64,000 nt of DNA from a virus: IMG/VR virus record IMGVR_UViG_3300045999_011383, one strand, 5' to 3'. The stretch's first letter is position 1. Each line of letters opens with the position of its first letter. The position numbers and the translations under genes are program-made. The notes beneath the pieces are model-generated. The model was not told the origin of the DNA and searched no databases. It was given only the letters and a program-made list of their open reading frames with translations. This document shows, one piece after another, positions 6,167 to 49,267 of this stretch.

Positions 6167-7703
6167 AACCCCTTTTACCAAGGATAGAGACAACTTTCTC
6201 CCATTAATGATGACAGAACGATTATTAATGGGAACGCTGGCAATTACAGCCATAGCAGGTACTTTTTCCCCTGTATTATTTTCCCATCAAAATAACTCGG
6301 TTAAGTTGGTTCAGCAAATATTTGGATTATTCTCAGGTATTTGTTTTACTGGAGAATCTTATCGCAGGAAGCAAAAAGAAAAATTCTACAACTCCATAGA
6401 ACAGGCAAATTTAGCTATTGTCAACAATCAGCTTAAAGGGTCTTTTGCCTTTGAACAGTGTCGAACTCAGATTGATTCTAAGCGGGAATTAGCTTCTTAT
6501 GTCAACTTATTGCCAGAAATAGAACGACCCCGATGGACACAAGAATTTGGGCTACATGGCTTAGTTGAGTTACCGCAGATACAGCAAGCAGTCCTTGAAC
6601 AGCCTAAGCAGTTGCCCGGTTCTCGTAGTATTCCTAACCCAGAGGTTGCCACCATTGACGAACAATCAGTACAAGCAATTATCAATCCTAGCGTAAGACA
6701 ACTACTGCAAGAATTAGCATCTCAGTATCCTGAATATGTGCGGATAGATGATTTCTGGGTTGATGAATTGTGTGAAAGTTCATCTAGACAAAACATGAGC
6801 GATCGCGCCAATCATCACTTTAGTTTTTGGGGAGAAACCCAATCAGGGAAATCAACTTTAGCAGGTGTTTTTATCAATAAGATTGCTGCTAATTCACAAA
6901 GGCCAGCTTATGTGTTTTGTTCAGATCCCAAGAATTACTTAACAGCTTGGTTGTGTAAATTTAGCCGCAAGTTTGATGGGTTTAAAACCAATTTAGATCA
7001 TTGGGTTACTTTTGCCACGAAAGTTATAGATGCACGTCAGGATGAGTTTAAAAACAACCGCAAGGGTGAAGGATTAAGTGAAATATTCTTGGTTCAAGAC
7101 GAGGTTAATGTTGTTTATGGTGAGGGCAAAGGACTACTTGGACAAGTACCAAAAGAAACGGCAATGAACCTTTGCGCTATGTGGAATTATATTATTAATT
7201 TCACCGCAGCCATGAAAATTCACGGCATCTTTATGGGACAAAATCCATTAAGTACCTACACTGGTTTTTCCCGTCCTGCACTTAAAAATATTTGCTTTTT
7301 GGCATTGGGGAAAGTGTCCAATTATGTACTTACTAGAATGCCAGAATTGTTAAATGTCAAAGCAGAAATATCTGATTTGTTTAGTCAAGTGTGTGAACTC
7401 TTAGACAGGGAACAGGTGAGATATGCCCTGGTAATTCCTACTCGTGGTAATCCATTTGTAGCCTTAATTCCGGTATTTGATATTGATGCAATGGAACAGG
7501 TCAACGAACCCCAAGAAACTGCTCCTAAGCAAGACGCAGTTAACTATTACGAAATACTGATTGAATGGATTAAAGAATTAGAGAGATTCCCCACCAACGA
7601 TGAACTAAAAGCAGCCTGGAAACACTTGACCGAACAGGAACTAAATGATAACGGGATTGAGTTACTAGCGTCCAAATTAAAAGAGGAATGGGAAAATGAG
7701 TAA
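6153..7703 (+). CDS. membrane-anchored P-loop NTPase (FtsK/HerA/coupling-protein-like)
   Basis: Two N-terminal hydrophobic spans, Walker A GETQSGKST and Walker-B-like IFLVQDEVN. Confidence 0.55.
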   Translation: MQIRETPFTKDRDNFLPLMMTERLLMGTLAITAIAGTFSPVLFSHQNNSVKLVQQIFGLFSGICFTGESYRRKQKEKFYNSIEQANLAIVNNQLKGSFAFEQCRTQIDSKRELASYVNLLPEIERPRWTQEFGLHGLVELPQIQQAVLEQPKQLPGSRSIPNPEVATIDEQSVQAIINPSVRQLLQELASQYPEYVRIDDFWVDELCESSSRQNMSDRANHHFSFWGETQSGKSTLAGVFINKIAANSQRPAYVFCSDPKNYLTAWLCKFSRKFDGFKTNLDHWVTFATKVIDARQDEFKNNRKGEGLSEIFLVQDEVNVVYGEGKGLLGQVPKETAMNLCAMWNYIINFTAAMKIHGIFMGQNPLSTYTGFSRPALKNICFLALGKVSNYVLTRMPELLNVKAEISDLFSQVCELLDREQVRYALVIPTRGNPFVALIPVFDIDAMEQVNEPQETAPKQDAVNYYEILIEWIKELERFPTNDELKAAWKHLTEQELNDNGIELLASKLKEEWENE

Positions 7704-7899
7704 GAAGTTAGAGGGCTTTATCTTAGGGTCAGAACAGGGATTAATCCATAAGAATACTGGACTTTATGACATTATTTTCACCACCAAAATAAGGGAAGCA
7801 AGACTGTTTAATTCAAGACGTGAAGTTGACACTTTTAAAACATTAAGAGGATTAGATTTGATGCCACTAACTTGTTATCAAATCTGTCAACAAACATAA
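7696..7899 (+). CDS. hypothetical protein
   Basis: 67-aa ORF overlapping the previous stop codon. Confidence 0.45.
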   Translation: MSKKLEGFILGSEQGLIHKNTGLYDIIFTTKIREARLFNSRREVDTFKTLRGLDLMPLTCYQICQQT

Positions 7900-7916
7900 T
7901 GAATACTTTGCTGGCA

Positions 7917-7948
7917 AAAGAGTATATGAGTAATTGTATACTCTTTTT
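7917..7948 (+). terminator. rho-independent terminator
   Basis: AAAGAGTATA-10 nt-TATACTCTTT stem followed by TT. It lies just after the 7899 stop. Confidence 0.5.
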
Positions 7949-8059
7949 AAGCATTAAAAATTATCGTTATTTATGTTTGATTACCTATGCTAATATATTG
8001 TTGTATAATAACAAAAGTTCACTAATTTATTTTTTTAATTTTGGTTTAGAGCGAAGATT

Positions 8060-8878
8060 ATGTTTAGCCCACAGCAAGTATTAGACTACATAAAAACGCG
8101 GGGTGGCGATGTTGAACTAAGGGATTTAAACCACTTTGGCAATAGTTTAATCAAAAGATTAGAAGCAGCAAGATGTATTAAGATAACTGGTAGGGTAGGG
8201 GAACTTAAAGTATCTCTAATTTGCAGTAATTTTGACAGCAAGCAACAGAAAAATATTGAACCCACTGAAACCATTGTTCAACCCCCAAAACACCCTGAGA
8301 AGGCAAAATTAAAAAAGCCTAAAACACCATATAAGCGACTTAAACCCAAAAAAGAAAAAGCCCCAGGGATAAAAACTAAGTGTAAATTGTTAAGAGAATC
8401 AATACTTAATGAAATCAAAAAGTCCAATAAACCCATGTCCACAGAAGACATAAGAACGGCACTAACTTTAAATATGAGTGCAAAAAGGGTTTACTATCAT
8501 TTAAAAAGTCTTGAAAAACAAAATTTAATCACCTCATTTGATTGGCATATTATCTTTTGGGTAAGTATAGAGAAAAAAGACTTATTGAACAAAGCTCCCG
8601 CAATGTATGTACCAAGAGACAGAAACAAAGCCCTTGTTTTAGAAGTTTTAAAAACCGCAGATAAAGCGTTGTCTGTAAAAGATGTTGTTGCATTGTTGTT
8701 CTTTAAATTGTCCGCATATACAGTCAGAAGAATATTGTCAATACTTATTCAGGACGGCATTGCTCAAAGCAATGTTGTTCCTAGTAACAAAGAATTTTAC
8801 TATGCTTGTAACGACAACACAAAAGCAATAATAAGTTTGCAAAAATTAAAAAAAACAAAGTTTTCTCCCCTGAATTAA
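8060..8878 (+). CDS. multi winged-helix DNA-binding protein
   Basis: 272 aa with three wHTH-like segments (for example STEDIRTALTLNMSAKRVYYHLKSLEKQNLITS) and a Lys/Pro-rich linker. Confidence 0.5.
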   Translation: MFSPQQVLDYIKTRGGDVELRDLNHFGNSLIKRLEAARCIKITGRVGELKVSLICSNFDSKQQKNIEPTETIVQPPKHPEKAKLKKPKTPYKRLKPKKEKAPGIKTKCKLLRESILNEIKKSNKPMSTEDIRTALTLNMSAKRVYYHLKSLEKQNLITSFDWHIIFWVSIEKKDLLNKAPAMYVPRDRNKALVLEVLKTADKALSVKDVVALLFFKLSAYTVRRILSILIQDGIAQSNVVPSNKEFYYACNDNTKAIISLQKLKKTKFSPLN

Positions 8879-8964
8879 GTTAAGATCAAAATAGTTTTTG
8901 AACCTACTACTCCCATGTCAAATCAACACTCAAGTGAGTATGTTTCCCACCAAAAAGATGAATT

Positions 8965-9321
8965 ATGCAGTTGGGAACTATGAAAAATACTCAATCAAAA
9001 ATAGACTACAGTAAGCGATACGGAAATCCTAGAAAGTATCGCCAACAATGCGCGATCGCTCACAAGTCAACCCATGGGCTATGCTGTTATTGCATTACTA
9101 GCAAATCAGATGAATTACATCATGCCTACTACGGCAAGGATGTCATAGGAGAATCGGTATTTCCTGTTTGCTTACGTTGTCATCAAACTATCTGTCATGA
9201 CCCCAAGAATTGGATTATAGACCACAAAAATCAATTGTGGAAAAATAGAAACACCACCAAGTTTTTAGAAAGACTAAAATTAGGTTACAGGCTATTATAT
9301 GAAGGCATAAACCTGATATAA
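8965..9321 (+). CDS. HNH/Zn-finger nuclease-like protein
   Basis: CCYC...DELHHAYY...CLRCHQTICHD arrangement of Cys and His residues. Confidence 0.45.
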   Translation: MQLGTMKNTQSKIDYSKRYGNPRKYRQQCAIAHKSTHGLCCYCITSKSDELHHAYYGKDVIGESVFPVCLRCHQTICHDPKNWIIDHKNQLWKNRNTTKFLERLKLGYRLLYEGINLI

Positions 9322-10374: not shown

Positions 10375-11511
10375 TTAATCTCTTATTTGCACAGGCATGG
10401 TTAAATATGTCATTTTTAATCCACTTAACGGAGTAAAAATAACTGGTTGCAACTGATGATTTAAGTGAATTTGAATCTCTGCGGAAGATAACTCTTTAAG
10501 TCCTTCCAAAAGATATTTAACATTAAACCCGACTTCGATATCAGTACCAGAAACTTGGGCTGGTATTGACTCTATAGCACTACCCACATCTTGAGTTTCG
10601 CAGGACAAAATTACTAGTTGATTGTCCCTATCTAAAGACAATTTGACAATATTGTTTTTCTGACTAGCTAACACAGAAATCCGTTCTAAGGTGCTAATAA
10701 ATTGTTTTCTGTCTATTGTTACTTCTCGCTCAAATTGCCTGGGAATTAATTGATTATAAGCAGGATAATGACCTTCTAATGTGCGACTGGTTAATCTTTG
10801 GTTTCCACGCACAAATACTACTTGTACCGGATCTATGTAAATTTCAACCTGTTCAGGAGCAGAACCCTGGCTTAACATTTTTTGCAATTCTCGTAACGCT
10901 TTAGCAGGAATTGTCACCTCTGATTCTTGATCCTCGTCTGACTCACGACTGGTTTCCACTACCGCTAATCTGTGTCCATCGGTAGAGGCAAATTCTATAC
11001 TATCTCGCTTTAAGAAAAAATGCACACCAGTGAGAACCTGTTTAGTCTCATCAGAGCTAGTAGCAAATAAAGTACGTTGCAGTCCCTCGCTAAGTGCCGA
11101 AGCAGAAACCTCAATTGGTTCTACCTCGTGAACTGTTGGCAACTCAGGAAACTCATCAGCATTCATAGCACGGACTTGATAGCGACCGCTTTTAGGTTTT
11201 AAAGTGACGGTAATACCACCGCTTTCTTCTTCAGTGCTACTGATTGTAATGTCACCCTGGGGTAATTTAGAAACAATATCTAAGAGTAGTTTAGAAGGTA
11301 TGGTAATTTCACCACCCTGTAACACCTGAGCATCAAAAGTAGTACAAATGCCTAAACTTAAATCAAAGGAAGTTAATTCCACTTGATCAGTGTCGCTGTT
11401 AGCCTTTAACAAAATATTAGCAAGTACCGGATGAGTTGGGCGTGAAGGAACAGCACGACTAGCCAAAGAAAGATTGGCGTTAAGTTCAGATTGAGAGCAA
11501 ATTAATTTCAT
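10375..11511 (-). CDS. dnaN: DNA polymerase III beta sliding clamp
   Basis: 378 aa. Canonical N-terminus MKLICSQSELNANLSLASRAVPSRPTHPVLANILLKA, and a three-domain length. Confidence 0.9.
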   Translation of the reverse strand: MKLICSQSELNANLSLASRAVPSRPTHPVLANILLKANSDTDQVELTSFDLSLGICTTFDAQVLQGGEITIPSKLLLDIVSKLPQGDITISSTEEESGGITVTLKPKSGRYQVRAMNADEFPELPTVHEVEPIEVSASALSEGLQRTLFATSSDETKQVLTGVHFFLKRDSIEFASTDGHRLAVVETSRESDEDQESEVTIPAKALRELQKMLSQGSAPEQVEIYIDPVQVVFVRGNQRLTSRTLEGHYPAYNQLIPRQFEREVTIDRKQFISTLERISVLASQKNNIVKLSLDRDNQLVILSCETQDVGSAIESIPAQVSGTDIEVGFNVKYLLEGLKELSSAEIQIHLNHQLQPVIFTPLSGLKMTYLTMPVQIRD

Positions 11512-11640: not shown

Positions 11641-13086
11641 ATGACCGAAAAACCAGGGGAATATACAGCCAAGTACAAGCCAACTCAATTAATTCAAGGA
11701 ACTGGACAGACTGCATTGATAACAGGATGGACTATCAAAGAAGCAGTCCAAAAACATTTGAGTAACCATGAATATGCAGTTATTGGGCAACTATACTCAC
11801 CCACAAGAGGGATTAACTTAGTGGTTCGGAATCTGCTATTAAATCCTCATGTTAGGTACTTAGTAATTCTCAATGGAACTAAGGAAGACAAAAACGCAGG
11901 TGGCTGTCAATGTTTAGCTGACTTTTTTCGTTATGGTTTCAATAAAGGTATTAGTGATATTGGTAGAAAAACCTGGGTAATTTCTTCTTCTATTACTGGC
12001 TATATTGACATCGAGATTGATATGAATGTTTTAAAAAAATTGCGTGAGTCTGTAGAAATCAAGGAAGTACAATCAATAGCCCAAGCTGTTGAAGCGGTCA
12101 GAGATTATGCAACTAAAAAACCCGTTGCACCTTGGGGAACACCCTTAGAATTTCCCATGAGTACAATTGAATCAAATACCCTACCAGGACCCCTCTATGG
12201 TCACAGAATAGAGGGTAAAACCATTGCGGAAACCTGGGTAAAAATCATCCATAGAATTAAAACAACCGGGGTGATCCGACCCACTAGCCATGATGGAACG
12301 TGGCAGGAATTGATAGATTTAATGGCAATTATTACCAATGAGCCTGATGATTTTTACTTTCCTGAACCCAACTATTTGCCAGTAGATAGAAGTTTTTTAC
12401 AAGAATATATTTCTCAGATATTAGAGGACGCGCCTAGTCAAGAAGGGATAAAATACACCTATGGACAAAGGTTACGTTCCTGGTTTGGTAAAGACCAGGT
12501 TCGACAGGTAATTGAAAAGCTAACCCATGACATTAATTCCGCCAGGGCTGTAATGTCTCTGTGGGATATTAAAGAAGACAACGATGAATCTAATCCCCCC
12601 TGTTTAAATCATATTTGGGTAAGGGTAGTCAGCGGTGAACTGTCTTTAACCGCAACCTTTCGTAGTAATGATATGTTCTCAGCATGGCCAGCCAATGCCA
12701 TGGGTTTAAGGGCTTTACAGAAATATATTTATAGTGCTTTATTGAGTTCCCATCAATCCCTCAAATTAGGTCCATTGATTACCATTAGTCAGAGCGCTCA
12801 TATTTATGATGATTGTTTTGAGAATGTCAGCAAGGTAATCTCATCTCAGTATGGTAAGATTGCCAAAAACCAGGATTACTCTGATCCTGTGGGGAATTTT
12901 ATTATTAGTAATCAAGAGGGTAAAGTCGTGGTTGAGCATACCACCCCTGGTTCAGGAGAGGTGGTTAATTGTTATTCAAATAAGTCCGCTTATAAGGTGT
13001 CACAAGAAATAATGAGAGATTGTCCAGGGTTGCAAAACTCCCATGCTATGTATTTGGGATGGGAGTTGTGCAAGTTAAAGTATTAA
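11641..13086 (+). CDS. thymidylate synthase / dNMP hydroxymethylase family enzyme with about 250-aa N-terminal extension
   Basis: ThyA-type motifs are present: PPCLNHIWV (catalytic Cys), FRSNDMFSAWPANAMGL and SQSAHIYDD. The N-terminal half is unassigned. Confidence 0.7.
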   Translation: MTEKPGEYTAKYKPTQLIQGTGQTALITGWTIKEAVQKHLSNHEYAVIGQLYSPTRGINLVVRNLLLNPHVRYLVILNGTKEDKNAGGCQCLADFFRYGFNKGISDIGRKTWVISSSITGYIDIEIDMNVLKKLRESVEIKEVQSIAQAVEAVRDYATKKPVAPWGTPLEFPMSTIESNTLPGPLYGHRIEGKTIAETWVKIIHRIKTTGVIRPTSHDGTWQELIDLMAIITNEPDDFYFPEPNYLPVDRSFLQEYISQILEDAPSQEGIKYTYGQRLRSWFGKDQVRQVIEKLTHDINSARAVMSLWDIKEDNDESNPPCLNHIWVRVVSGELSLTATFRSNDMFSAWPANAMGLRALQKYIYSALLSSHQSLKLGPLITISQSAHIYDDCFENVSKVISSQYGKIAKNQDYSDPVGNFIISNQEGKVVVEHTTPGSGEVVNCYSNKSAYKVSQEIMRDCPGLQNSHAMYLGWELCKLKY

Positions 13087-13201: not shown

Positions 13202-14224
13202 CTAGGAAACCTTGATTTCAGCGATCGCTTCTTCTAAATGTTCCTGAATCACTAATCCCTCTCGCTCTAAAATCGCTCGTTTAGCTGCATCTTGGGCAAC
13301 CCTCACAGCTTGAGCCGCAGAAAAATCTTTCATCTGTTCAATAATTCTTGGCCAGTTGATAGATCCCACTTCAATTGCAGATAGTGTTTCCCTCAGTATA
13401 AATTCTAGTTCTTTTTCTCCCGGTTTGGGTACTGCAATCAGATCATCAAATCTCCTCCATAGGGCAGTATCCAAAGATTTATTCAAATTCGTAGCGGCTA
13501 CCATAAGCCCAGAAGAAGGTTGATATTCATCCAAAATTTGCAAAAATGTATTTACTACTCGCTTAATTTCTCCCACTTCCTGAGAATCTTCTCGTGTCTT
13601 AGCAATTGAGTCACATTCATCTAAAAATAATAAACATGGATTTTTTGCAGCATCCTCAAATACCAGTCTTAAATTACTGGCTGTCTCCCCTAAAAAAGAC
13701 GACACCATTGCATCAAAACGTACTTTTAACAGTGGTAAACCTGTATTCCAGGCTAAACGTTCTGCTCCTAATGTCTTTCCACACCCAGGCGGTCCATAAA
13801 GGAGAATTTTTTGCCGATAACGCAGCCCATGATGAGCTAGTCTATCTCTTGCTGCATACTCGCGCTCAATTCTTTGAAAACGCTTTTCAATTTTTTCAGG
13901 CAATACCATGTAATGACGTAGTTTATCCCTTGGTATGGTCGTTACCAAGGGAAGGTTAAAACGCTTACTGGTTGGTAATTCGCTTAAACCCTGTAAGTTT
14001 TCTCCTGTTGTTTGTGTGGCATTTGCAAGAAAGGAAACAGGTTTGATAGGGTCGGGAGATTGATCTCTGGGTTTCTTTTTAGCAATATTCTCTAACTGGT
14101 CAGCAAGGAGGGTATGCCCTTTACTGCGCTCTTCTTCTATGACCAGATATGCAAGTTTGTCAATCGCTTCTTGGTCTGAACTAGCGATCGCTCTGAAAAA
14201 CCTTTTGAGAATCTCTCCCTTCAT
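13202..14224 (-). CDS. classic-clade AAA+ ATPase
   Basis: Walker A GPPGCGKT, Walker B LLFLDECD, sensor VAATN and the second-region-of-homology motif ALWRRFD. Confidence 0.8.
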   Translation of the reverse strand: MKGEILKRFFRAIASSDQEAIDKLAYLVIEEERSKGHTLLADQLENIAKKKPRDQSPDPIKPVSFLANATQTTGENLQGLSELPTSKRFNLPLVTTIPRDKLRHYMVLPEKIEKRFQRIEREYAARDRLAHHGLRYRQKILLYGPPGCGKTLGAERLAWNTGLPLLKVRFDAMVSSFLGETASNLRLVFEDAAKNPCLLFLDECDSIAKTREDSQEVGEIKRVVNTFLQILDEYQPSSGLMVAATNLNKSLDTALWRRFDDLIAVPKPGEKELEFILRETLSAIEVGSINWPRIIEQMKDFSAAQAVRVAQDAAKRAILEREGLVIQEHLEEAIAEIKVS

Positions 14225-14323: not shown

Positions 14324-14406
14324 TTGCAACTGGGCTTTGACTTGCAATTAACCCAGTCCCTCAAGGTCGGCTTCTTGCAATTAACCCAGTTCCCCAAGTC
14401 CGGTTT
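14324..14406. repeat. decayed CRISPR repeat remnants
   Basis: TTGCAACTGGGCTT (14324..14337) is the exact reverse complement of repeat positions 22-35. Two 30-bp units CTTGCAATTAACCCAGT(C/T)CC(T/C)CAAG(G/T)(T/C)CGG lie at 14341 and 14374. Confidence 0.55.
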
Positions 14407-15543
14407 GCTTCAACTATCCTCAGTCCCTAAGCCCAGTTGCAAGTGTCAAGGGGTTTATTTTCGAAACCCTTATATTTCCTACGTCGTTTCAACTATCCTC
14501 AGTCCCTAAGCCCAGTTGCAAGTGAAGGACGTGATTCTAATGCAGCAAAGAACATCTGTTTCAACTATCCTCAGTCCCTAAGCCCAGTTGCAAGACACAT
14601 TCTTTATCTTTTAAATATAGCTTATACCATCTGTAGTTTCAACTATCCTCAGTCCCTAAGCCCAGTTGCAAGAACACCTTACCACCTTTAAGGTAAGACG
14701 GCACTTTAGGTTTCAACTATCCTCAGTCCCTAAGCCCAGTTGCAAGACAGAATTGAGAGAACTTTCAAGCCATAAGAGAGTAGCGTTTCAACTATCCTCA
14801 GTCCCTAAGCCCAGTTGCAAGATTTTCAAAAATTTAAAAATGAATCTGGACATGAAGATGTTTCAACTATCCTCAGTCCCTAAGCCCAGTTGCAAGAATG
14901 CACATTAACAAAAAAAAACCATGAAAAACCGTTTCAACTATCCTCAGTCCCTAAGCCCAGTTGCAAGAAAACTTATCAGATACTTAATAAGGCTATAGGT
15001 TAGTTTCAACTATCCTCAGTCCCTAAGCCCAGTTGCAAGCTCCCATTTATACAGCTTACTAGCAGCGCAAATAGTTTCAACTATCCTCAGTCCCTAAGCC
15101 CAGTTGCAAGTCAAAAATCAACAGGAATTGGCCACTACTATTGAAGGATGTTTCAACTATCCTCAGTCCCTAAGCCCAGTTGCAAGATAAAGCCGTCCGG
15201 GGAGGCATGACTAATGAGGATGGTTTCAACTATCCTCAGTCCCTAAGCCCAGTTGCAAGTTGAGACAGTTAAACCCAAGGTACTTTAACCTAGTTTCAAC
15301 TATCCTCAGTCCCTAAGCCCAGTTGCAAGAAAGTATTAAAGAAATGCTCAAACTACCGGCATGTTTCAACTATCCTCAGTCCCTAAGCCCAGTTGCAAGT
15401 TGCTACATTTACCATACTTATGGAAACTGTCAATGTTTCAACTATCCTCAGTCCCTAAGCCCAGTTGCAAGTTACTTTGTAAGACGTTATGTAAGACGGC
15501 GATGGAGTTTCAACTATCCTCAGTCCCTAAGCCCAGTTGCAAG
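14407..15543. CRISPR. CRISPR array with 16 repeats of 37 bp and 15 spacers
   Basis: Repeat GTTTCAACTATCCTCAGTCCCTAAGCCCAGTTGCAAG starts at 14407 (this copy begins GCTT), 14486, 14558, 14636, 14710, 14785, 14860, 14931, 15003, 15074, 15150, 15223, 15293, 15363, 15435 and 15507. The spacers are unique and 33-42 bp long. Confidence 0.95.
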
Positions 15544-15886
15544 TCCCGGCTTTCAAAAGCTTTATAAGTCAAGGGTTTCAAAGGCAATTCTGGCGGACCT
15601 GCTAAAAAATCTCATTTCAGCCGCTTAAATCAGCTTGGGTCTTTAAAAGAAACTGAGCGAAACTCTTGCAATGTCATGGTTCTGGACTTTTGGCGAATGT
15701 CCAGGGTTTTTACCCTAGCTTTGATATGCCAAAAAGATGAGATAGTTGCCAGCCATAGTTCCGGCTGGTCTTTGGGGGTTGTCGCCTTCCCCCTTACTTT
15801 TTAGGGTAAAACCCTTACAAGTCATAAGCTAACATTACATTAGCTACCCGTCCAAACTGCGGTAATTTAATATTAACCTAGTCCTA
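15544..15886 (-). ncRNA. candidate leader / tracrRNA-like structured region (hypothetical)
   Basis: 343 nt with no ORF between the nuclease stop and the array. Hairpins at 15682..15704, 15703..15716, 15749..15768 and 15774..15793. GAGATAGTTG at 15739..15748 resembles the repeat end. Confidence 0.3.
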
Positions 15887-19852: not shown

Positions 19853-20371
19853 GTGACAACCAATCATTACGGAATGCCACAGACACGAGACAAGTGTTAT
19901 GGCGTGGCTGCTTGTTTAAGTTATTGGGTTTTTAAATGCCGTGACAGGAAACGTAGTCCAGCCATGGGAACTAAAACCTGGACATATTTGGAATCTTCTA
20001 TCAAGAATTGTGCAGAAATATCCACAAATTTAGAAGATTATCTACAAAATCTTTGTGATAAATTGATATCGCAATTAAGACCTGTAGAGCTAACCAAAAT
20101 TATTCAACCAACTCAGAGAATACTGAGAATTAATGAAGATGCAACTGAAATCAAGGAACTACCAATAGATCGAAGTTTGGTTTTTATGGGGTGGCTTGAC
20201 TTGCTTGCCGATATTGAACCCCACGGATTTAGTGAGTGGGACGTAATGGAATTGTTAAGAACAAAAACAGGAGTTATTCAAGTAATTTGTCGTCTGCGAT
20301 TTGAAGAAGATAGAAGTGTGGGGCTTGATGAACCAGAAGAATTTATTGAGGTAGAGGTGACAAATGTTTGA
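19853..20371 (+). CDS. first gene of the RAMP operon, possible small-subunit (Cas11-like) protein
   Basis: 172 aa with a GTG start after GGGAAAG. The 8-nt overlap with the next gene and the size fit, but I saw no diagnostic motif. Confidence 0.3.
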   Translation: MTTNHYGMPQTRDKCYGVAACLSYWVFKCRDRKRSPAMGTKTWTYLESSIKNCAEISTNLEDYLQNLCDKLISQLRPVELTKIIQPTQRILRINEDATEIKELPIDRSLVFMGWLDLLADIEPHGFSEWDVMELLRTKTGVIQVICRLRFEEDRSVGLDEPEEFIEVEVTNV

Positions 20372-21497
20372 TAATTATAATATTTTTGACAGAGAGAAAT
20401 TAACCCTGCATTGCTTAATCACGCTACAGACACCATTGAGCCATATAGGCGAAGTGTCTGGCAATGTTAGCAATCTGAAAACTACTAAGTTATTGGACTT
20501 TGAAGGTAATCCTAGAAGTGTTTTTGTCTATTCTGGTAATGCAATCAGAAACGGTATTTTGCGCCGGGTAGGAGTGGCAGCAGCACTCACGGAATTAGGA
20601 ATTAAGGTAAATCCAGATACTCACCATACAATGTTTGCTGGCGGGCGAATTGATGGGGGGACAGCTTCGGATATGGAACTGGATAAAAAGATCCGGGTCT
20701 TTATGCCTTGGCTATCAGTATTGGGAACAGCCAAACCCATAGGTGTTTTTGGGACTAAAGAAGCCCAGATGGTAGCTGGTAGAAGTAATATTGGCAGTGG
20801 TTATTTAGTCTGCTATGAGTCAGCAGAATACGTTTACAACCAACTCCCAGCAGTTTTACCACCGGAAATACAGCCAACTATGGCCTTATTAATTGAAGCT
20901 AAAACCAGACTTTCTTCCGACCCTTTTGTATCCACAAAATCAGAAGACTTAACTAACTGGAATCAAGCAAAATCAGAATGTTTGCCACTGATCAAAAAAG
21001 CAATGAAAACATGGACTGAATACTTAACAATTGATCAGACAACTCGCAGAGATAGCACTTTAGATCCCAACTTACTCAAATTTCTACCATCAGAAGTACA
21101 AGCACAATTAACAGGTGATGGTAAAACTAAAGAAAAAACTAAATCAGATCAGATGATTGCGTCTGACAGGCTGATCATGCCCGGTGCTAAACTTTATTCT
21201 CGATGGGATCTAACTTGTACTCAAATAGAAGAGGGATGGATATTTGATACTTTACTCAAGTTTTCAGAATCACCTTATATTGGTGGTAAAGGCAATCGTG
21301 GCAATGGCAGGGTTCATCTTGATTTCTGGTTTCAGTCTGACCATGAACGGGGGTTATTGTGTTCTCTGAAAGATGGAATTATGGGAGATAGGTTTCTTAA
21401 TTCCCATCAAAAATATCGGGAATATATCAATCAGTATCAGCAGTTTTTAAGTGAAGCAAAAACATCCAAGGAATTAAGGAAGTTGTTAGGTGAATAA
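20364..21497 (+). CDS. RAMP protein, Cas7/Csf2-like backbone subunit
   Basis: 377 aa. N-terminal LHCLITLQTPLSHIG, then YSGNAIRNGILRR, and a C-terminal glycine-rich loop YIGGKGNRGNGRV typical of RAMPs. Confidence 0.6.
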   Translation: MFDNYNIFDREKLTLHCLITLQTPLSHIGEVSGNVSNLKTTKLLDFEGNPRSVFVYSGNAIRNGILRRVGVAAALTELGIKVNPDTHHTMFAGGRIDGGTASDMELDKKIRVFMPWLSVLGTAKPIGVFGTKEAQMVAGRSNIGSGYLVCYESAEYVYNQLPAVLPPEIQPTMALLIEAKTRLSSDPFVSTKSEDLTNWNQAKSECLPLIKKAMKTWTEYLTIDQTTRRDSTLDPNLLKFLPSEVQAQLTGDGKTKEKTKSDQMIASDRLIMPGAKLYSRWDLTCTQIEEGWIFDTLLKFSESPYIGGKGNRGNGRVHLDFWFQSDHERGLLCSLKDGIMGDRFLNSHQKYREYINQYQQFLSEAKTSKELRKLLGE

Positions 21498-22176
21498 TTT
21501 AAAAGTCACTGCATATTTGTCTACACCGATTGGTGTCTATGACAATTGGAGTCCTTCTTTGGAGGGACTTCTTACCTATAGATTACTAGAAGAAAATAAT
21601 CTATTGTCTCCCAATCCCACCGCAGAGCAAGTAGCAAAGGTTCAGAATTTTTTAGTAAATGAATTACCGCTTAAACAGAATACAATAATGAATGATAAGT
21701 ATTTCTGTGTAAGTTCACCTTGCTATGTGGTTCAAGGTGAGGCTACTGATAAATATCGGAAAAGATGGGACAATCACGAAAATAATCTGAACTGGGGAAA
21801 AAGAAAGCCTAAATTCTTGACGGGTGAAGGTGCAGAAAAGTCCTATGATTTACCGCTATACACTCGTTTAACAAATAGTATTAGTTGGTTTGTAACAGGC
21901 GACAGAACCAAGATTGACGCTCTATTGTCACCTGTTACCCATATTCAGAAAAAACGAAGTTATGGCAATGGTGAAGTTAAGCAATGGCAACTAGAAATAG
22001 TTTATGACGACTATCATTTGTGGCGAGATAATAAACTAATGCGTCCTATGCCCGTGAAGTTAATATCACAAAAAATAGATAATCCTCAAATGATTTGGGG
22101 ATGGAAAAGCCCGTCTTGGTTAGCAGAAAATAAAGAACTTTGTTATATGCCAAAGGACAATGTGATTTATGCTTAG
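21490..22176 (+). CDS. RAMP protein, Cas5/Csf3-like
   Basis: 228 aa. LKVTAYLSTPIGVYDNWSPSLEGLLTYRLL N-terminus and a KKRSYGNGEV glycine loop. Overlaps both neighbouring genes. Confidence 0.5.
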   Translation: MNNLKVTAYLSTPIGVYDNWSPSLEGLLTYRLLEENNLLSPNPTAEQVAKVQNFLVNELPLKQNTIMNDKYFCVSSPCYVVQGEATDKYRKRWDNHENNLNWGKRKPKFLTGEGAEKSYDLPLYTRLTNSISWFVTGDRTKIDALLSPVTHIQKKRSYGNGEVKQWQLEIVYDDYHLWRDNKLMRPMPVKLISQKIDNPQMIWGWKSPSWLAENKELCYMPKDNVIYA

Positions 22177-22915
22177 TAATGGCTCTGGGGTTCAATACCC
22201 TTGGTTGAAAAAGAAAATTACTAAAGCTATTAATTTCATTAATCAGTGGCTAGAACAATGCAACTATCAGGTTTATGCAAGTATTTCCGGTGGTAAAGAT
22301 AGCTTAGTAATGTCTCATTTGATCAGGAAAGTTTACCCTGATTGCCCGTTAGTTTGGGTAAATCAAGGGCTGTTAGCAGAATGGGATGATTGTATTGAAT
22401 TATTGGAATACTTGAAAACTCAAAACTGGAACATTATTGAGCTTTGTCCAGTTCGTGATTTATGGCATTTATACATAGATCACGGAGTTCCGTTAGAGGG
22501 TACGATGGATACAAAAGTAGATAAATTAATCAACCAAAAATTGATTTATGATCCATTGCAAGAATACCAAGAAATCAACAATATCAAAGGGTACGCATGG
22601 GGAATAAGGAAGCAAGAAAGCAAAAACAGAGCATTTTATCTTAACAAGTACGGTGAAGTTCATGAACTAAAAAATGGGTTAATTTGTTGCTCGCCTATTG
22701 CTCACTGGACTACAGAAGAAATATGGCAGTACATAGATATGTACTCACTCAAATACCCAGCAATTTATGACATTAACAAAATGACAGTCAGGAATGGTTG
22801 CCCGATTGGAACTACAGGAGCAAACTGGGGTAGATTAGCTGAATTAAAAAGATATTACCCCAATATTTACAACCAATTTGTTGATAAATTCCCACAAATA
22901 TCGAACTATGTCTAA
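22169..22915 (+). CDS. PAPS-reductase/CysH-like PP-loop protein
   Basis: PP-loop SISGGKDS and WGIRKQESKNR. I saw no C-terminal ECGLH motif (it reads RNGCPIG instead). Confidence 0.8.
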   Translation: MLSNGSGVQYPWLKKKITKAINFINQWLEQCNYQVYASISGGKDSLVMSHLIRKVYPDCPLVWVNQGLLAEWDDCIELLEYLKTQNWNIIELCPVRDLWHLYIDHGVPLEGTMDTKVDKLINQKLIYDPLQEYQEINNIKGYAWGIRKQESKNRAFYLNKYGEVHELKNGLICCSPIAHWTTEEIWQYIDMYSLKYPAIYDINKMTVRNGCPIGTTGANWGRLAELKRYYPNIYNQFVDKFPQISNYV

Positions 22916-23666
22916 TTGCTACCTTTGCGCTAAACCAGCATCAAATCCACTAGAATTATCCAATACTTTCACCATGCACTCATCGGCTAAGTGTCCAGAC
23001 TCTAAGCTGCTGTGCGATCGCTGCTATTCTACAATTTCTGGTAATCAAAAGCAGTTATGGTATTGGAATGAAGGTAAAAATAAGTGGTCAAAACTGTGGG
23101 GACGATCTTTGTCCAGGGTGTACCAAGGCGATACTTTAATAGCACCAATAATTAAAGGCACTCACACTGAAGGCAAAGATACTTTCAGTGTGGTTAGAAA
23201 CTTATTGACGCGGGTAGAAATCAGGGAATATTTATTAAATCCTCCTGAGCCACCGTTCACTATCGCTATAGCAGAATCAGGACAAAAACACATTATCCCA
23301 TGGGCATTAGAAGCGCGTAGCTGTAACTTTTTTCCAATTCAATTTGAGTTAGACACGGTTTATATTGACAACAGATTCAAGGAATCTTTGCAAGTATATG
23401 AACAACTAATGGGATTAGGGTTTAGTAAGTCTGAAATTGATTCAGGAAACTACAGAAGCGATAGATTGATGAAAGTGTTTGATAAATTTTGGGAACTTGA
23501 GGAATCCATAAAAGCCATTAGAGGGACTAGATTAATGGAATTAATAAATTACGTCGCTCAACTACAATCAAGTGCCGTCGTGGCGGAAATAAAGCCAATT
23601 CCTGTAATTCCTGTTTCTCCCACGAGTCCAGACAAATCAAATCCAGTTCAGTTATCGTTGTTTTAG
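22908..23666 (+). CDS. Zn-ribbon protein, Csf1-like large-subunit candidate, with C-terminal clamp-binding motif
   Basis: The ATG at 22908 overlaps the cysH-like stop (ATGTCTAA). N-terminal CYLC...CPDSKLLCDRC. The C-terminus is NPVQLSLF followed by the stop. Confidence 0.45.
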   Translation: MSNCYLCAKPASNPLELSNTFTMHSSAKCPDSKLLCDRCYSTISGNQKQLWYWNEGKNKWSKLWGRSLSRVYQGDTLIAPIIKGTHTEGKDTFSVVRNLLTRVEIREYLLNPPEPPFTIAIAESGQKHIIPWALEARSCNFFPIQFELDTVYIDNRFKESLQVYEQLMGLGFSKSEIDSGNYRSDRLMKVFDKFWELEESIKAIRGTRLMELINYVAQLQSSAVVAEIKPIPVIPVSPTSPDKSNPVQLSLF

Positions 23667-23930: not shown

Positions 23931-24920
23931 TTAAATTGCATTTTTAATAGCCTGACAAATTCGTTGCATAAGCAATGGGGGAATGGAATTTCCAATTCCC
24001 CTAACATCAACCGCAGACTTACCCGACCATTTATAAGAATCAGGAAAAGATTGTATTCGTGCTAACGCATGGGTGCTTAAACTCTTGCAAGTATCACCAC
24101 AGACAATATCAATTATTTTAGAGCGATTGCCATTGTGTCCATCGTCACCTAACACTGCACGAATAGTCCAACATGGTTCTAATGGTGTTTTGACCTTGGG
24201 TTTGCCACGGTATCCAATTCGTTCTACTAGTACCATTGAGTCGCCATAGGGTGCTACAGCGTCCTTCTGTCGGGGTGTTATCTGTGATTCAGTGAAGTGG
24301 GGAATCAGATCACAAATCGCTTCATGCCACCCAATCCAGTTTTTCCTAAATAGATTAATTTGCCCATTAATTGCTTTTCCATACTCAGGAATAATGCAAG
24401 GAAAGTCAAACCCATCAGATACGGCAATACTTAAAAACCGTTTTCGGGATTGAGGTACACCGTAATCAGCAGCATTGTAAATACCTTTGCCAATCCGATA
24501 TCCTTTGTCTATTAAAAATGCTTCAAAGTCCAGATAAACCTTTGATTTAGAATAACCGGGGACGTTTTCTAAAACTATAAATTCAGGTTCATATAAGCTG
24601 TAAAATTCATGGGTTGCACTCAATATATTAGCACGAACGCTATCTTTATTGGTAGCCACATTAACCACTGAAAAGTCTTGACAAGGTGGTGAAGTTTGGT
24701 GAACTAAAATATCGCCATTCCGGTCTTTTTTGGTGGGAATATTTAAATTCCTGAAGTTAACTTTGGCAATATCTTCTATTAATACATCCCCACAATTAGT
24801 TTGATAAAGTTCTGCTATTCTAGGATCAAACTCAATAGCAGATATTGGTTTTAATAAAGCAGACATTGCACCTATAGTTGAGCCACCGCATCCTGAAAAA
24901 TGAGTAGAGTAATAAATCAT
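23931..24920 (-). CDS. DNA (cytosine-5) methyltransferase
   Basis: Motif I FSGCGG, IV PPCQDFS, VI LENVPG, VIII QSRKRF, X GNSIPP. Confidence 0.9.
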   Translation of the reverse strand: MIYYSTHFSGCGGSTIGAMSALLKPISAIEFDPRIAELYQTNCGDVLIEDIAKVNFRNLNIPTKKDRNGDILVHQTSPPCQDFSVVNVATNKDSVRANILSATHEFYSLYEPEFIVLENVPGYSKSKVYLDFEAFLIDKGYRIGKGIYNAADYGVPQSRKRFLSIAVSDGFDFPCIIPEYGKAINGQINLFRKNWIGWHEAICDLIPHFTESQITPRQKDAVAPYGDSMVLVERIGYRGKPKVKTPLEPCWTIRAVLGDDGHNGNRSKIIDIVCGDTCKSLSTHALARIQSFPDSYKWSGKSAVDVRGIGNSIPPLLMQRICQAIKNAI

Positions 24921-27627: not shown

Positions 27628-28482
27628 ATGATTAATCAAGTAATTCATGGTGATTGTTTTGAAGTTTTGAAAACTATTCCTGATGGTTCTATTGACGCTG
27701 TAATCACAGATCCGCCTTACATGACAACTGATTTAAACTTTGATAAAACAGGCTTTGATGTTGACTTATTCTTAAAATTATTATTACCAAAACTTAAAAG
27801 TGATGGACAATTAGCTGCATTTGGGAGTATTGAATTACTTGCTAAGTTTAGCGGTATTTATCCTATTAGATGGTCAGGAATGTGGTTAAAACCGAGAGGA
27901 GTGATGAGAACTCATACAGCCAAGAAACCTATGAGCAAAAGCGAACCTTACTGTATATTTGCTCACCCAAAACATAAAGTATCAAACCTTGTTTATAACA
28001 AAATATTATTGCCAGGAGAGCCTTATGAAAAAAAACAAAAAAATACTGGCTATATTAGAGACGGCAAAAATCAAATAGATAGAGCAAATACTTCTGCATG
28101 GACTAAGGACGGGTATATCTCAAAAAACCTGGGTACAAGACAACAAACAGATGTTATTGAATCTCCGTTCAAAGGCTGCATGAAACATCATGAACGAACC
28201 ATTCACCCCACACAAAAGCCTGTAGCACTGATATCTACATTGGTTCAGTGGATAACCAACCCCGGCGATACAGTCCTTGACCCTTTTGCTGGTAGTGGTA
28301 CAACAGCACTAGCCTGTAAAGAACTCAACAGAAACTATATCTGCATTGAGAAGGAACGGGAATATATTGACATTATTCATCAACGCCTAAACACACCCAT
28401 AGCTGAAAGGGGATTAACTGTAGAGGAACAGGTAGAGATTGAGAAAACTAAGTCACCTTATCAACAGTTGTCATTGTTTTAG
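27628..28482 (+). CDS. beta-class N6A/N4C DNA methyltransferase with C-terminal clamp-binding motif
   Basis: DPPY (VITDPPYM) lies before FxGxG (DPFAGSGTT). The C-terminus is YQQLSLF followed by the stop. Confidence 0.85.
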   Translation: MINQVIHGDCFEVLKTIPDGSIDAVITDPPYMTTDLNFDKTGFDVDLFLKLLLPKLKSDGQLAAFGSIELLAKFSGIYPIRWSGMWLKPRGVMRTHTAKKPMSKSEPYCIFAHPKHKVSNLVYNKILLPGEPYEKKQKNTGYIRDGKNQIDRANTSAWTKDGYISKNLGTRQQTDVIESPFKGCMKHHERTIHPTQKPVALISTLVQWITNPGDTVLDPFAGSGTTALACKELNRNYICIEKEREYIDIIHQRLNTPIAERGLTVEEQVEIEKTKSPYQQLSLF

Positions 28483-35020: not shown

Positions 35021-35686
35021 TCATGGCTTATGAATTAATGTTGACGCTGAACAATCTTTCCCTAATTTAATATCAAAGATAGCGTCGTAGCATTGCCGAC
35101 CGCTGTTCATGACTGGTTTTCCGTTCTTAAACTGCGGAACACCTTGGATTGTTTTTTGGCACTTACTCATAGGAATACCTTCCTTAAGGTAATCCACTCT
35201 ATCCGCGATCGGATAGATGTGACGAATATGTGCGTTCAAAGATTCCCAAGCTTTAGCTCTTCCTTGAGAGCAATTCCAATCCAGTGGCATTAGAAATAGT
35301 AGTCGGGAATTGGGGCTATTATTAAGTAGTTCCAAGGATTTAGCAACTGCTTCAACACACAGAGAAAAAGGCGGGTTAGTGATGATAAGGTCGCATCCCC
35401 ATATAGAGACATCCTTAAAAAAATCACCATTTACCCATGTAGCTGACTTGGCTTTTTCTTTCCCTTGCAAGAATCGGGAATACTTGATTTCTATACATTC
35501 TATTGAGCGATCGCTCGGTAGGTATTTAGCTATCTGCCCAGAACCAGCAAAGGGTTCTAGTATTTGTTTGTCCGTGGGTAAGACCAGTCTAGACATAGCG
35601 ACAGCAAGCCAGTCAGGTGTCTCATAGTCGTCGTTTGTGAAGTCACTCGTGGTGACTTGTTCTTGAAAAAGTGCTAATTGGTTCAT
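35021..35686 (-). CDS. N6-adenine DNA methyltransferase with N-terminal clamp-binding-like motif
   Basis: Motif I EPFAGSG lies before motif IV ITNPPFS. The protein starts MNQLALFQ. Confidence 0.8.
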   Translation of the reverse strand: MNQLALFQEQVTTSDFTNDDYETPDWLAVAMSRLVLPTDKQILEPFAGSGQIAKYLPSDRSIECIEIKYSRFLQGKEKAKSATWVNGDFFKDVSIWGCDLIITNPPFSLCVEAVAKSLELLNNSPNSRLLFLMPLDWNCSQGRAKAWESLNAHIRHIYPIADRVDYLKEGIPMSKCQKTIQGVPQFKNGKPVMNSGRQCYDAIFDIKLGKDCSASTLIHKP

Positions 35687-39637: not shown

Positions 39638-39889
39638 ATGATACCACCATTAAGATTGCCACCAAAGGATTTTGCTGTACTACCGCGCCCAACTAATCCC
39701 CAACCTTGGGAACGGATATCAAAGCCAGCTTATTGGTTTGGAGACAGGCTAAGAACAAATCTAGGATGGGGGATATGTTCAGGGGTCAAGCGTATAAGTA
39801 CAGGGGATTGGCTTTACTACATTGATCTAGACGACACCTTTTGTCCACATCCGTTTGCAGAATCAGAAATTAAGGAGAAATTAAAATGA
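39638..39889 (+). CDS. hypothetical protein
   Basis: 83-aa ORF that abuts its neighbours. Confidence 0.45.
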   Translation: MIPPLRLPPKDFAVLPRPTNPQPWERISKPAYWFGDRLRTNLGWGICSGVKRISTGDWLYYIDLDDTFCPHPFAESEIKEKLK

Positions 39890-40410
39890 GACAAATTACC
39901 AAAATCAAAGCAAAAAGAAACGATGATACAGAAATGGTGGCAATTACTTACGCCATTTTTAATGAAGATGGTGAGGAGCAAAAAACCGTGACTGTACGTA
40001 GCAAAGAAGAAGCGTCGGACAGTTTTTATCAGGCACTAGACAGCCTAAGAAGCGTTTTGATAGATGCAGTGGGATTAGATGCTGATATTTGGAAAGAAGG
40101 ATTAGTTACTGATTTTGCAATCAAAGATAAAGAGGATTTGGTAAGTCTTGGCATTGGCGGAAAGTGTGAGATACAAGGCAGATTTGTCACTGTTTCCACT
40201 AAAGATGTATTGATTGAGAAATCTGCTTATGAACACAAGATTGTGTCTGCGGTACTAGTTGAAGCTTCTGAATATTTAGATGGTGAACGCAATGGCTGGA
40301 AACAGTCCTCTTTATTCACAATGGAAAACCCAGGCAATAGTGATGAAGACGAAGATGAAGGCGGTGAAGCAGAAGAAGAAAAAGTGGCGGAACTAGCTAT
40401 TGGTTTTTAA
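39886..40410 (+). CDS. hypothetical protein with a strongly acidic tail
   Basis: The C-terminus is WKQSSLFTMENPGNSDEDEDEGGEAEEEKVAELAIGF. Confidence 0.5.
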   Translation: MRQITKIKAKRNDDTEMVAITYAIFNEDGEEQKTVTVRSKEEASDSFYQALDSLRSVLIDAVGLDADIWKEGLVTDFAIKDKEDLVSLGIGGKCEIQGRFVTVSTKDVLIEKSAYEHKIVSAVLVEASEYLDGERNGWKQSSLFTMENPGNSDEDEDEGGEAEEEKVAELAIGF

Positions 40411-42562: not shown

Positions 42563-42582
42563 CAATACCCAGGTCAACTACC

Positions 42583-48508: not shown

Positions 48509-49267
48509 ATGGCTAGTGTAAATACAGGCATTGAATGGACAGATAAAACCTGGAATCCTACCACAGGTTGCGACAAAGTTAGCCCAGGTTGCTTACATTG
48601 TTACGCAGAGACTTTAACTAACCGATTCCCCAAATCTTTTCCTTATGGATTTGATTTAACGCTATATCCAGAAAGACTGAAAGAGCCTTTAAAATGGCGT
48701 ACTCCCAGTAGAATCTTTGTTAATAGCATGAGTGACTTATTCCACAAAAAAGTACCCTTAGATTTTATTCAAGAGGTCTTTAAAGTCATTCAGGCTACCC
48801 CTCACCATGTCTATCAAATATTAACAAAAAGACCGGAGCGATTAGTTGAATTATCACCACATCTAGAGTTTCATAAAAATATCTGGTTAGGTGTATCAGT
48901 GGAAAATCAAAGTTATGTTTCTCGTATTGACTTACTGCGTCAAGTACCAGCAAATGTGCGGTTTCTGTCTTGTGAGCCATTGCTAGGTTCATTAAACCTT
49001 GACCTCACAGGCATTGATTGGGTCATTGTTGGTGGGGAATCTGGACAAAAACACCGTCCGATGAAAATTGAATGGGCTGAAAGTATCCGTGATCAATGTC
49101 AAAAAGCAAAAGTAGCATTTTTCTTTAAACAAGTTGGTGGTAAAACTCCTAAGTCTGGAGGTAGTCTTTTAAGCGGACAATTGTTACAGCAAATGCCCGC
49201 TGCTTGGGAAAAACACCAAGCTACTGCTTGGCTTAAACAGCCTAAGCAAGTTGCTTTGTTTAACTAG
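48509..49267 (+). CDS. phage Gp37/Gp68-family (DUF5131-like) protein
   Basis: Signature N-terminus GIEWTDKTWNPTTGCDKVSPGCLHCYAE. The C-terminus is KQVALFN. Confidence 0.75.
   Translation: MASVNTGIEWTDKTWNPTTGCDKVSPGCLHCYAETLTNRFPKSFPYGFDLTLYPERLKEPLKWRTPSRIFVNSMSDLFHKKVPLDFIQEVFKVIQATPHHVYQILTKRPERLVELSPHLEFHKNIWLGVSVENQSYVSRIDLLRQVPANVRFLSCEPLLGSLNLDLTGIDWVIVGGESGQKHRPMKIEWAESIRDQCQKAKVAFFFKQVGGKTPKSGGSLLSGQLLQQMPAAWEKHQATAWLKQPKQVALFN

Follow-up and report, generated by a model that had tools for sequence, protein, structure and literature searches.

Known clients of the bacterial beta sliding clamp (DnaN) include Pol III alpha, Pol II/IV/V, MutS/MutL and Hda, the last with an N-terminal motif. 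The clamp-binding motif (CBM) follows the consensus QL[S/D]LF or QxxLF, in which positions 1, 4 and 5 are critical; QLSLF is the C-terminal CBM of B. subtilis PolC (PMC12309361). A 64-kb stretch of viral DNA (IMG/VR record IMGVR_UViG_3300045999_011383; this whole stretch is called the window below) encodes its own DnaN and carries pentapeptides of this type, here called tags, at the extreme termini of four further proteins: QLSLF twice, QLALF and QVALF, on a Csf1-like protein, two DNA methyltransferases and a DUF5131 protein (Table 1). The preferred reading, with a probability of about 0.7, is that these terminal Q-L-(S/A)-L-F peptides are canonical CBMs recruiting DNA-modifying enzymes to any loaded beta clamp, with the phage dnaN as an extra supply.

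Compared with the bacterial clients, the window shares the pentapeptide consensus, its terminal or extended placement, the critical positions 1, 4 and 5 and a conserved clamp cleft. It differs in the proteins concerned, which here are DNA methyltransferases, DUF5131 radical-SAM-like proteins, PAPS-reductase-like proteins and a CRISPR-type large subunit; the terms methyltransferase and CRISPR have no occurrences in a 2024 review of the beta clamp (PMC11139829). Mobile elements provide another precedent: insertion sequence (IS) transposases and Tn7 TnsE are reported to use CBMs to find replicating DNA (PMC3971601, PMC4549789). These proteins catalyse transposition, whereas the tagged proteins of the window modify or survey DNA. 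Phage Mu MuC is likewise a non-replicative phage protein with a CBM and depends on the host beta clamp, but it is a transcription factor (late activator), and phage Mu encodes no clamp, whereas the window combines a host-like dnaN with several tagged DNA-modifying enzymes. The phage T4 clamp gp45 is a mobile platform for the late-transcription proteins gp33 and gp55. It shares with the window a phage-encoded sliding clamp and its (here putative) use by non-polymerase proteins through short terminal peptides; gp45, however, is a PCNA-like trimer that has a loader and a motif of its own, unlike the seemingly host-copied bacterial DnaN and bacterial consensus found here. Eukaryotic PCNA recruits the maintenance methyltransferase DNMT1 through a PIP box. 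An earlier, sequence-only reading of the window had drawn this parallel, which holds in its logic only, that of a methyltransferase coupled to a sliding clamp and acting on newly replicated DNA. The two are non-homologous: the clamp is a bacterial DnaN, the motif is a bacterial QLxLF-type CBM in place of the PIP box, and the proposed function is anti-restriction or epigenetic marking as opposed to maintenance methylation.

The targets and mechanism of type IV-B CRISPR-Cas systems are listed as unknown in a 2024 review (PMC11127173), and a clamp has zero mentions in two type IV papers (PMC8175902, PMC7937560). Full-text searches, which partly covered subscription journals, returned no papers in which the beta clamp is tied to Csf1, to type IV-B systems or to DNA methyltransferases of phages or bacteria. 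So far, CBMs are known from polymerases, from proteins of repair and of replication control, from a few transposases and from a single phage transcription factor.

The phage DnaN (378 aa, amino acids) has the features of its class, three clamp domains and a conserved peptide-binding cleft. It matches PF00712, PF02767 and PF02768 (DNA_pol3_beta, _2 and _3; E 4e-35, 5e-28 and 2e-25), its best match among solved structures is the clamp 7ybd (E 6e-54), and the plus-strand translation of the same interval is full of stops. The protein shares 66–69% identity with the DnaN encoded on the chromosomes of Dolichospermum, Aphanizomenon, Anabaena and Sphaerospermopsis and therefore looks like a copy derived from the host. 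The cleft core is identical to that of E. coli beta at L155, T172, G174, H175, R176, L177, P242, Y323, M362 and P363 (E. coli numbering, also below), with the conservative changes V247L, V360L and R152K. Phage and host (Nostocales) clamps share 22 of 24 pocket positions, the two differences being A361T and L366I. Since the phage cleft is nearly that of the host, the peptides should bind either clamp. A phage-encoded DnaN as such is already known; 97 GenBank phage records have one, Nodularia phages among these.

The distribution of the tags was assessed over 97 non-overlapping open reading frames (ORFs) of the window, totalling 19,024 aa. The pattern Q[LV].LF occurs four times, each time at most two residues from a terminus and never internally. 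Per-protein shuffling (5,000 shuffles) gives a mean of 0.013 terminal and 0.51 total occurrences, so that four or more terminal ones have a Poisson probability of about 1e-9. The pattern is absent from the 92 shadow ORFs of the window, and unrelated phage loci used as a control (810 genes, 152 thousand aa) contain seven internal and no terminal copies. Chance is rejected as the origin of the terminal motifs by these shuffles and control loci. A repeated DNA element is rejected as well, because the codons differ from gene to gene (CAG TTA TCG TTG TTT; CAG TTG TCA TTG TTT; CAA GTT GCT TTG TTT; CAA TTA GCA CTT TTT). Judged from sequence, the terminal pentapeptides are selected at the protein level and not due to chance. 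The sequence-only reading had proposed an own DnaN, four terminal motifs and the great improbability by chance of three near-perfect terminal hits; domain and structure matches, translation and the statistics confirm these points. The candidate clamp-binding peptides, with flanks, are SPDKSNPVQLSLF, KSPYQQLSLF, MNQLALFQEQV, LKQPKQVALFN and GWKQSSLFTMEN.

The Csf1-like protein, ending in ...NPVQLSLF, shows conservation of its tag apart from the flanks. Its start is most likely ATG 22908 (MSNCYLCAKP..., as in all homologues), not TTG 22878. An AlphaFold2 model built on the homologue alignment has predicted local distance difference test (pLDDT) values of 81–97 at residues 1–221 and 32–44 at residues 222–252, and the tail 222–252 is predicted to be disordered. 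The 120 close homologues fall in two forms, 78 short and 41 long. Short forms end right past ...RGTRLLQLISYVA; long forms add a Pro/Lys/Glu-rich linker of 25–30 residues without sequence conservation (pairwise identity ~0.1), closed at the extreme end by QLSLF, QLALF, QLTLF, QMALF or QLSLW. The 41 long tails comprise 37 strict motifs, three loose ones and one QLAFF. In the 37 strict tails, Leu fills position 2 in 33 and S, A or T fills position 3 in 36; both preferences lie outside what the search pattern required, and they reproduce the published clamp-binding consensus.

A wider search with a domain profile lacking the tail columns, run against 1.84e9 representative proteins at E<=1e-3, found 851 Csf1 relatives. 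The best 150 of the 851 hold 68 long forms, 29 with a strict terminal motif and 18 with a loose QxxLF tail. A C-terminal tail resembling a CBM is thus present on about one third of the wider Csf1-family representatives (best 150 of 851). Some tailed relatives are GC-rich, unlike the low-GC cyanophage ones (...VAQLSLFADEHRDAGSE, ...HQLDLFADGH and ...RQLSLFD), and one of these is named Csf1 by JGI. Genome hits include tailed Csf1 in one Prochlorotrichaceae and one Saccharibacteria, and tail-less Csf1 in the actinobacteria Corynebacterium and Nocardia.

The beta-class methyltransferase (Pfam N6_N4_Mtase, E 3e-31) ends in ...PYQQLSLF. Among its homologues, 70 of 120 have Q[LM]x[LI][FWL] at most three residues from the C-terminus, past variable acidic linkers; they include methyltransferases of 305 and 452 aa that share only their ends with the query and have different central regions. 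Many untagged homologues stop soon past the catalytic domain, including that of Rhodoferax P0165, the sole named non-cyanobacterial source. The 221-aa methyltransferase (PHROG 799 'DNA methyltransferase', E 6e-26) starts with MNQLALF, and MNQL[A/T]LF is kept in nine viral loci (83–93% identity) though the downstream residues vary; two more distant relatives have no N-terminal motif. The DUF5131 protein (Pfam DUF5131, E 8e-96) ends in ...KQVALFN. Members of this family usually end in ...EFPxx, and the extension KQPKQ[V/A]ALF[N/K] appears only in a clade of 84–100% identity, which makes the DUF5131 tail, taken alone, a weak case at the sequence level. Conservation of the termini in orthologues, a check suggested earlier, is accordingly clear for Csf1 and the beta-class methyltransferase and weaker, in close relatives only, for the 221-aa methyltransferase and DUF5131.

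Four weaker candidates named in the sequence-only reading (QSSLF, QINLF, QVLSLF and TQLSMC) are present where it placed them, and they fare differently as clamp motifs. Orthologues of the 174-aa acidic protein, at identities between 94% and 38%, retain Q[S/P/Q]SLF, although the stretch past it ranges from 0 to 30 residues; one orthologue (L014) stops exactly at ...AQQSLF. This protein is probably a fifth client, judging by that conservation. QINLF in the C5 cytosine methyltransferase is ambiguous as a putative clamp-binding motif; it lies within a 13-aa insertion present only in 93–98% identical relatives and absent from the 24–28% identical methyltransferases of related loci. QVLSLF in the 391-aa initiator-like protein was rejected, since the entire 30-residue block around it is conserved (QILSLFEFW in 40% relatives) and probably folded. 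TQLSMC is the C-terminus of a 387-aa protein, for which the label 'DGQHR' was not confirmed in Pfam, NCBIfam or PHROGs.

All the sequence-level hallmarks expected of a CBM are present: the consensus QL[S/A]LF, the extreme terminus, a disordered or hypervariable linker and conserved positions 1, 4 and 5. A short linear motif might nevertheless address a different partner, for example as a protease degron, a virion packaging signal or a ligand of another phage hub, and it is general knowledge that hydrophobic C-termini can act as degrons. The motif, however, occupies both C-terminal and N-terminal positions (the latter in MNQLALF, MATQLDLF and MQLSLFD) or stops a few residues short of an end (QLSLFG, QLSLFDEI), which suits a docking peptide and not an end-dependent degron. 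Its composition (Q at position 1, aliphatic at 2, small or acidic at 3, L at 4, F or W at 5) is that of the experimentally defined CBM, it occurs on a large share of wider Csf1-family representatives, and the tagged families are all DNA-acting. Another partner is, on this evidence, improbable.

The tags recur beyond the window. In 77 other DnaN-encoding viral loci, 10 terminal motifs were found in 1,945 genes, against about 0.3 expected (scaled from the window shuffles). Tagged here are a D12 Dam-like methyltransferase, DUF5131, PAPS-reductase-like proteins, TnpB and unknown proteins; the Dam-like methyltransferase, in an independent contig, ends in ...GQLGLF. In L095, an unrelated DnaN-encoding contig, an independent DUF5131 protein ends in ...MQLNLF and adjoins a PAPS_reduct protein that starts with MRQLSLF, which suggests, from gene order and motifs, a clamp-tethered two-enzyme DNA-modification pair. 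Further PAPS_reduct-like proteins of DnaN-encoding contigs start with (M)YQLNLFD and MQLSLFD, and a Csf1-anchored locus (L069) has a second PAPS-reductase-like protein starting with MATQLDLFGN. That tagged proteins are preferentially DNA-modifying or DNA-acting is supported, as far as predicted function goes.

Several side observations belong to this survey. PAPS-reductase-like proteins with N-terminal QLNLF or QLSLF (L073 10389-13645, L095 148-1937) in some cases also have a C-terminal QxxLF, and one has an intein. A TnpB with OrfB_IS605 and Cas12f-like TNB domains, encoded in a DnaN-encoding viral contig (L103 1028-2029, minus strand), ends in ...TQLKLF, a possible clamp-binding tail on an RNA-guided nuclease. 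Small function-unassigned proteins of related cyanophages end in QLSLF or QLSLFK (L024 6946-7497, minus strand; L010 3388-3846; L012 10899-11357); one of them is a Gly/Ser/Cys-rich protein of 183 aa and another has 152 aa. The cultured Nodularia phage vB_NpeS-2AV2 (NC_048637.1; L163–L165) has its own DnaN, PolA and clamp loader, and C-terminal tags on gp072 (hypothetical, KQLDLF), the helicase gp139 (KQLNIF) and gp051 (hypothetical, QIKLF). It could be an experimental system for phage clamp clients.

Whether the phage clamp itself is the hub can be judged from a variable island (window ~7700-31000 compared). It contains dnaN, the ThyA-like gene, the AAA ATPase, the CRISPR array with the C2c8-like gene, the type IV-B module, the C5 methyltransferase and the 387-aa protein. 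IMGVR_UViG_3300037541_000741, assembled from three loci to 43.1 kb, is syntenic with the window and has a 1.4-kb gap between the flanking homologues in place of the ~20-kb island. No dnaN was found in it by tblastn at E<=10, and it keeps a 93%-identical methyltransferase ending in QQLSLF and the QQSLF acidic protein. The tags are thus maintained with the host clamp alone, which argues against a need for the phage clamp.

These data bear on the idea that phage DnaN is a dedicated hub for which the tags evolved, a private tool-belt on phage DNA. Such a role would fit the position of dnaN in an island with two or three tagged genes (Csf1 and the C5 methyltransferase, with the beta-class methyltransferase nearby) and the excess of terminal tags in other DnaN-encoding loci. 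It conflicts with a pocket that is the host's save for A361T and L366I, with motifs that follow the universal bacterial consensus, and with the tagged relative described above; moreover, pattern scans for Nostocales-type DnaN did not recover other contigs of the same clade (clade 2). A dedicated hub is therefore the least probable of the explanations considered. The comparison supports, at the sequence level, a hub that is 'a beta clamp' and not specifically the phage clamp. The tethering of DNA-modifying enzymes to a clamp proposed in the sequence-only reading finds partial support, with clamp binding very plausible and a DNA-modification theme that is real, while the special status of the phage clamp is not supported (22/24 pocket positions as in the host). 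The location of dnaN in the same island as extra clients favours an extra-supply role.

Under the preferred reading, recruitment to any loaded clamp, each client would have three parts: a catalytic or scaffold domain that is folded, a linker that is flexible and evolves fast, and the pentapeptide as the very end of the chain. Clients in this sense would be the two DNA methyltransferases, the DUF5131 radical-SAM-like protein, the Csf1 large subunit and probably the 174-aa acidic protein. The peptide's docking site on a DnaN protomer would be the hydrophobic domain II–III cleft. Clamps would be loaded at primer ends in phage replication and then left on the new duplex, so that clients would be concentrated on fresh unmodified DNA and act co-replicationally; phage DNA might, for example, be methylated ahead of cutting by the many host restriction systems. 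The phage dnaN most likely adds to the pool of clamps and would thus keep the clients from starving the replicative polymerase, by analogy with MuC, whose overexpression titrates the clamp and is harmful (10.1101/2025.01.04.631326, PMC12867686). The analysis shows the motifs and their terminal enrichment, protein-level conservation next to variable linkers, a tail that is disordered in the model, an intact pocket and recurrence on like enzyme classes elsewhere; physical binding, co-replicational action and this supply role are what we infer.

The same MuC observations can be turned round. Tagged proteins, all together or some of them, might poison or take over the host clamp, filling its clefts and slowing host replication or displacing host polymerases and repair factors, with phage DnaN sparing phage replication: overexpressed MuC, a CBM-bearing phage protein, does disturb host replication control via the clamp, and several motifs of high-affinity type (QLSLF twice) and an extra dnaN lie in one island. 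Yet with pockets identical at 22 of 24 positions the phage clamp would be poisoned equally, the tagged proteins, as enzymes, have activities of their own directed at DNA, and tags occur also in related phages without dnaN and on numerous metagenomic Csf1 proteins. Poisoning is consequently considered unlikely.

Some findings weigh against recruitment of DNA-modifying enzymes by canonical CBMs. Most Csf1 homologues are short forms without a tag, which is thus facultative; relatives of the 221-aa methyltransferase at 55–59% identity have MNQLSLS, without the Phe; and DUF5131 proteins outside one clade are untagged. In QVALF-N and its variant QAALF-N (L019), position 2 is off consensus and the motif stops just short of the very end. 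In vB_NpeS-2AV2 the methyltransferases carry no tag, and the supply role of phage dnaN draws on one island and an analogy.

Table 1. Features of the window discussed in the text, with the tagged genes of a cultured Nodularia phage in the last row.
Feature	Coordinates	Strand	Remarks
dnaN, beta sliding clamp, 378 aa	10375-11511	-	Pfam clamp domains and structure matches
Thymidylate-synthase-like and pterin-binding DUF4346 fusion, 481 aa	11641-13086	+	directly adjoins dnaN
AAA ATPase	13202-14224		classical PF00004 AAA protein
CRISPR array	14341-15567		16 identical 37-nt repeats (GTTTCAACTATCCTCAGTCCCTAAGCCCAGTTGCAAG), spacers ~33-42 nt
C2c8 / type V-U TnpB-like gene, 624 aa	15887-17761	-	NCBIfam V_cas_c2c8 E 4e-55, below cutoff
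172-aa ORF, possible Cas11 (candidate)	19853-20371	+	position where cas11 would be
Csf2/Cas7	20364-21497	+	NCBIfam cas7_csf2 E 5e-7, below cutoff
Csf3/Cas5	21490-22176	+	NCBIfam cas5_csf3 E 3e-9, below cutoff
CysH-like PAPS-reductase-fold protein	22169-22915	+	Pfam PAPS_reduct E 6e-18
Csf1-like large subunit	22908-23666	+	folded 1-221, disordered Pro-rich linker (model), terminal QLSLF (codons 23649-23663)
C5 cytosine DNA methyltransferase	23931-24920	-	internal QINLF (24348-24362); Pfam DNA_methylase E 1.5e-37
Beta-class N6/N4 DNA methyltransferase	27628-28482	+	acidic linker, terminal QLSLF (codons 28465-28479)
221-aa DNA methyltransferase (NPPF motif)	35021-35686	-	N-terminal MNQLALF (codons 35680-35666)
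174-aa protein, replication module	39886-40410	+	QSSLF (40303-40317) between folded part and acidic tail
DUF5131 (Gp37/Gp68 family, radical-SAM-related)	48509-49267	+	~20-aa C-terminal extension, QVALF-N (codons 49247-49261)
vB_NpeS-2AV2 tagged genes (NC_048637.1)	55085-55675, 94966-96393, 42482-42916	-, -, +	

The tagged Csf1-like gene, 11.4 kb from dnaN (a distance larger than the ±10 kb covered in the loci around other Csf1 genes), belongs to a module with the gene set of type IV-B systems: csf1, csf2, csf3 and a cysH-like gene in one operon. The resemblance extends to gene order, to distant Csf1, Csf2 and Csf3 profile matches, to the PAPS-reductase-fold partner and to the Csf1 fold, for which the only significant PDB matches of the model in Foldseek were 7xg1_A and 8rc3_G of type IV-A Csf complexes, chains that we take to be Csf1; the match to the type IV-A Csf1 chain has a probability of 1.0 and a TM of 0.52. 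Unlike described type IV-B systems, the module is phage-borne, its Csf1 has a CBM-like tail, and the NCBIfam csf1, csf2 and csf3 scores are all far under the curated cutoffs (cas8u_csf1, E 4e-8). The 172-aa ORF has no family match. The CRISPR array, preceded by two degenerate 33-nt repeats, adjoins the C2c8/TnpB-like gene and lies ~4.3 kb upstream of the module; a related module in L069 has a Cas6 gene. L066, L068 and L069 share this gene order, and genes there have precomputed Pfam labels for Csf3 and Csf1.

Short-form modules gave further observations. The L069 module combines a short untagged Csf1 with the Cas6 gene (features 6856-8013, 8715-9266 and 11796-12683), and a 4-aa insertion in a variable Lys/Glu loop of its Csf2 makes EGQLSLFG. 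A shift of the motif to the Csf2 loop in short-form modules was rejected as a general pattern: it was seen in L069, not in L066, L075, L077 or the other loci examined, and is anecdotal. In L066, a 74-kb phage-like contig, a gene with a precomputed Pfam AcrVA2-like label (10654-11463) stands directly downstream of a short-form Csf1.

A bolder proposal is that type IV-B Csf complexes are replisome-coupled. The Csf1 tail would anchor to beta clamps both the Csf2/Csf3/Cas11 ribonucleoprotein and the CysH-like partner with its ATP-pyrophosphatase fold, and the complex would act on newly replicated DNA, marking or modifying it or hindering the replication of competing elements. In its broader form, the beta clamp would serve cyanophages as a general DNA-modification tool-belt carrying methyltransferases, DUF5131 and PAPS-reductase-like proteins, a bacterial-virus counterpart of PCNA-coupled epigenetic maintenance. 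This combined proposal is tentative, and the odds are somewhat against it.

The source virus is a lambda-like siphophage of Nostocales cyanobacteria. The window (G+C 38.6%) has lambda-like tail genes, including the central tail fiber J (phrog_31, E 1e-115), minor tail and tail-assembly genes, a portal gene, and replication genes for a DnaB-type helicase (E 2e-100) and a DnaD-like initiator or loader. Its proteins are 93–100% identical to those of several IMG/VR viral contigs, and the source names of homologous proteins point to Dolichospermum, Aphanizomenon and other Nostocales as likely hosts. No cultured relative was found: megablast of 21 kb of the window against 50,697 GenBank phages gave no matches, as did tblastn of the Csf1-like protein against the same set. 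Near dnaN, the 481-aa fusion could be a pyrimidine hydroxymethylase or other modified-base synthase, which would suit a phage whose DNA is heavily modified. The AAA ATPase was rejected as a clamp loader, being a classical PF00004 protein with weak PHROG similarity to loaders.

The most interesting outcome is the Csf1 tail as a family-wide facultative feature. On sequence evidence, whole classes of DNA-modifying enzymes and a type IV-B-like large subunit now join the CBM candidates, and the analysis suggests a rationale for phage-borne dnaN, whose product may cushion the supply of clamps against depletion by clients of the same phage. Should clamp binding by the tails prove real, DNA methylation coupled to PCNA would have a counterpart in prokaryotes, the protection of nascent DNA by a methyltransferase-rich phage in restriction-rich hosts would be explained, and type IV-B systems would gain their first concrete mechanistic handle.

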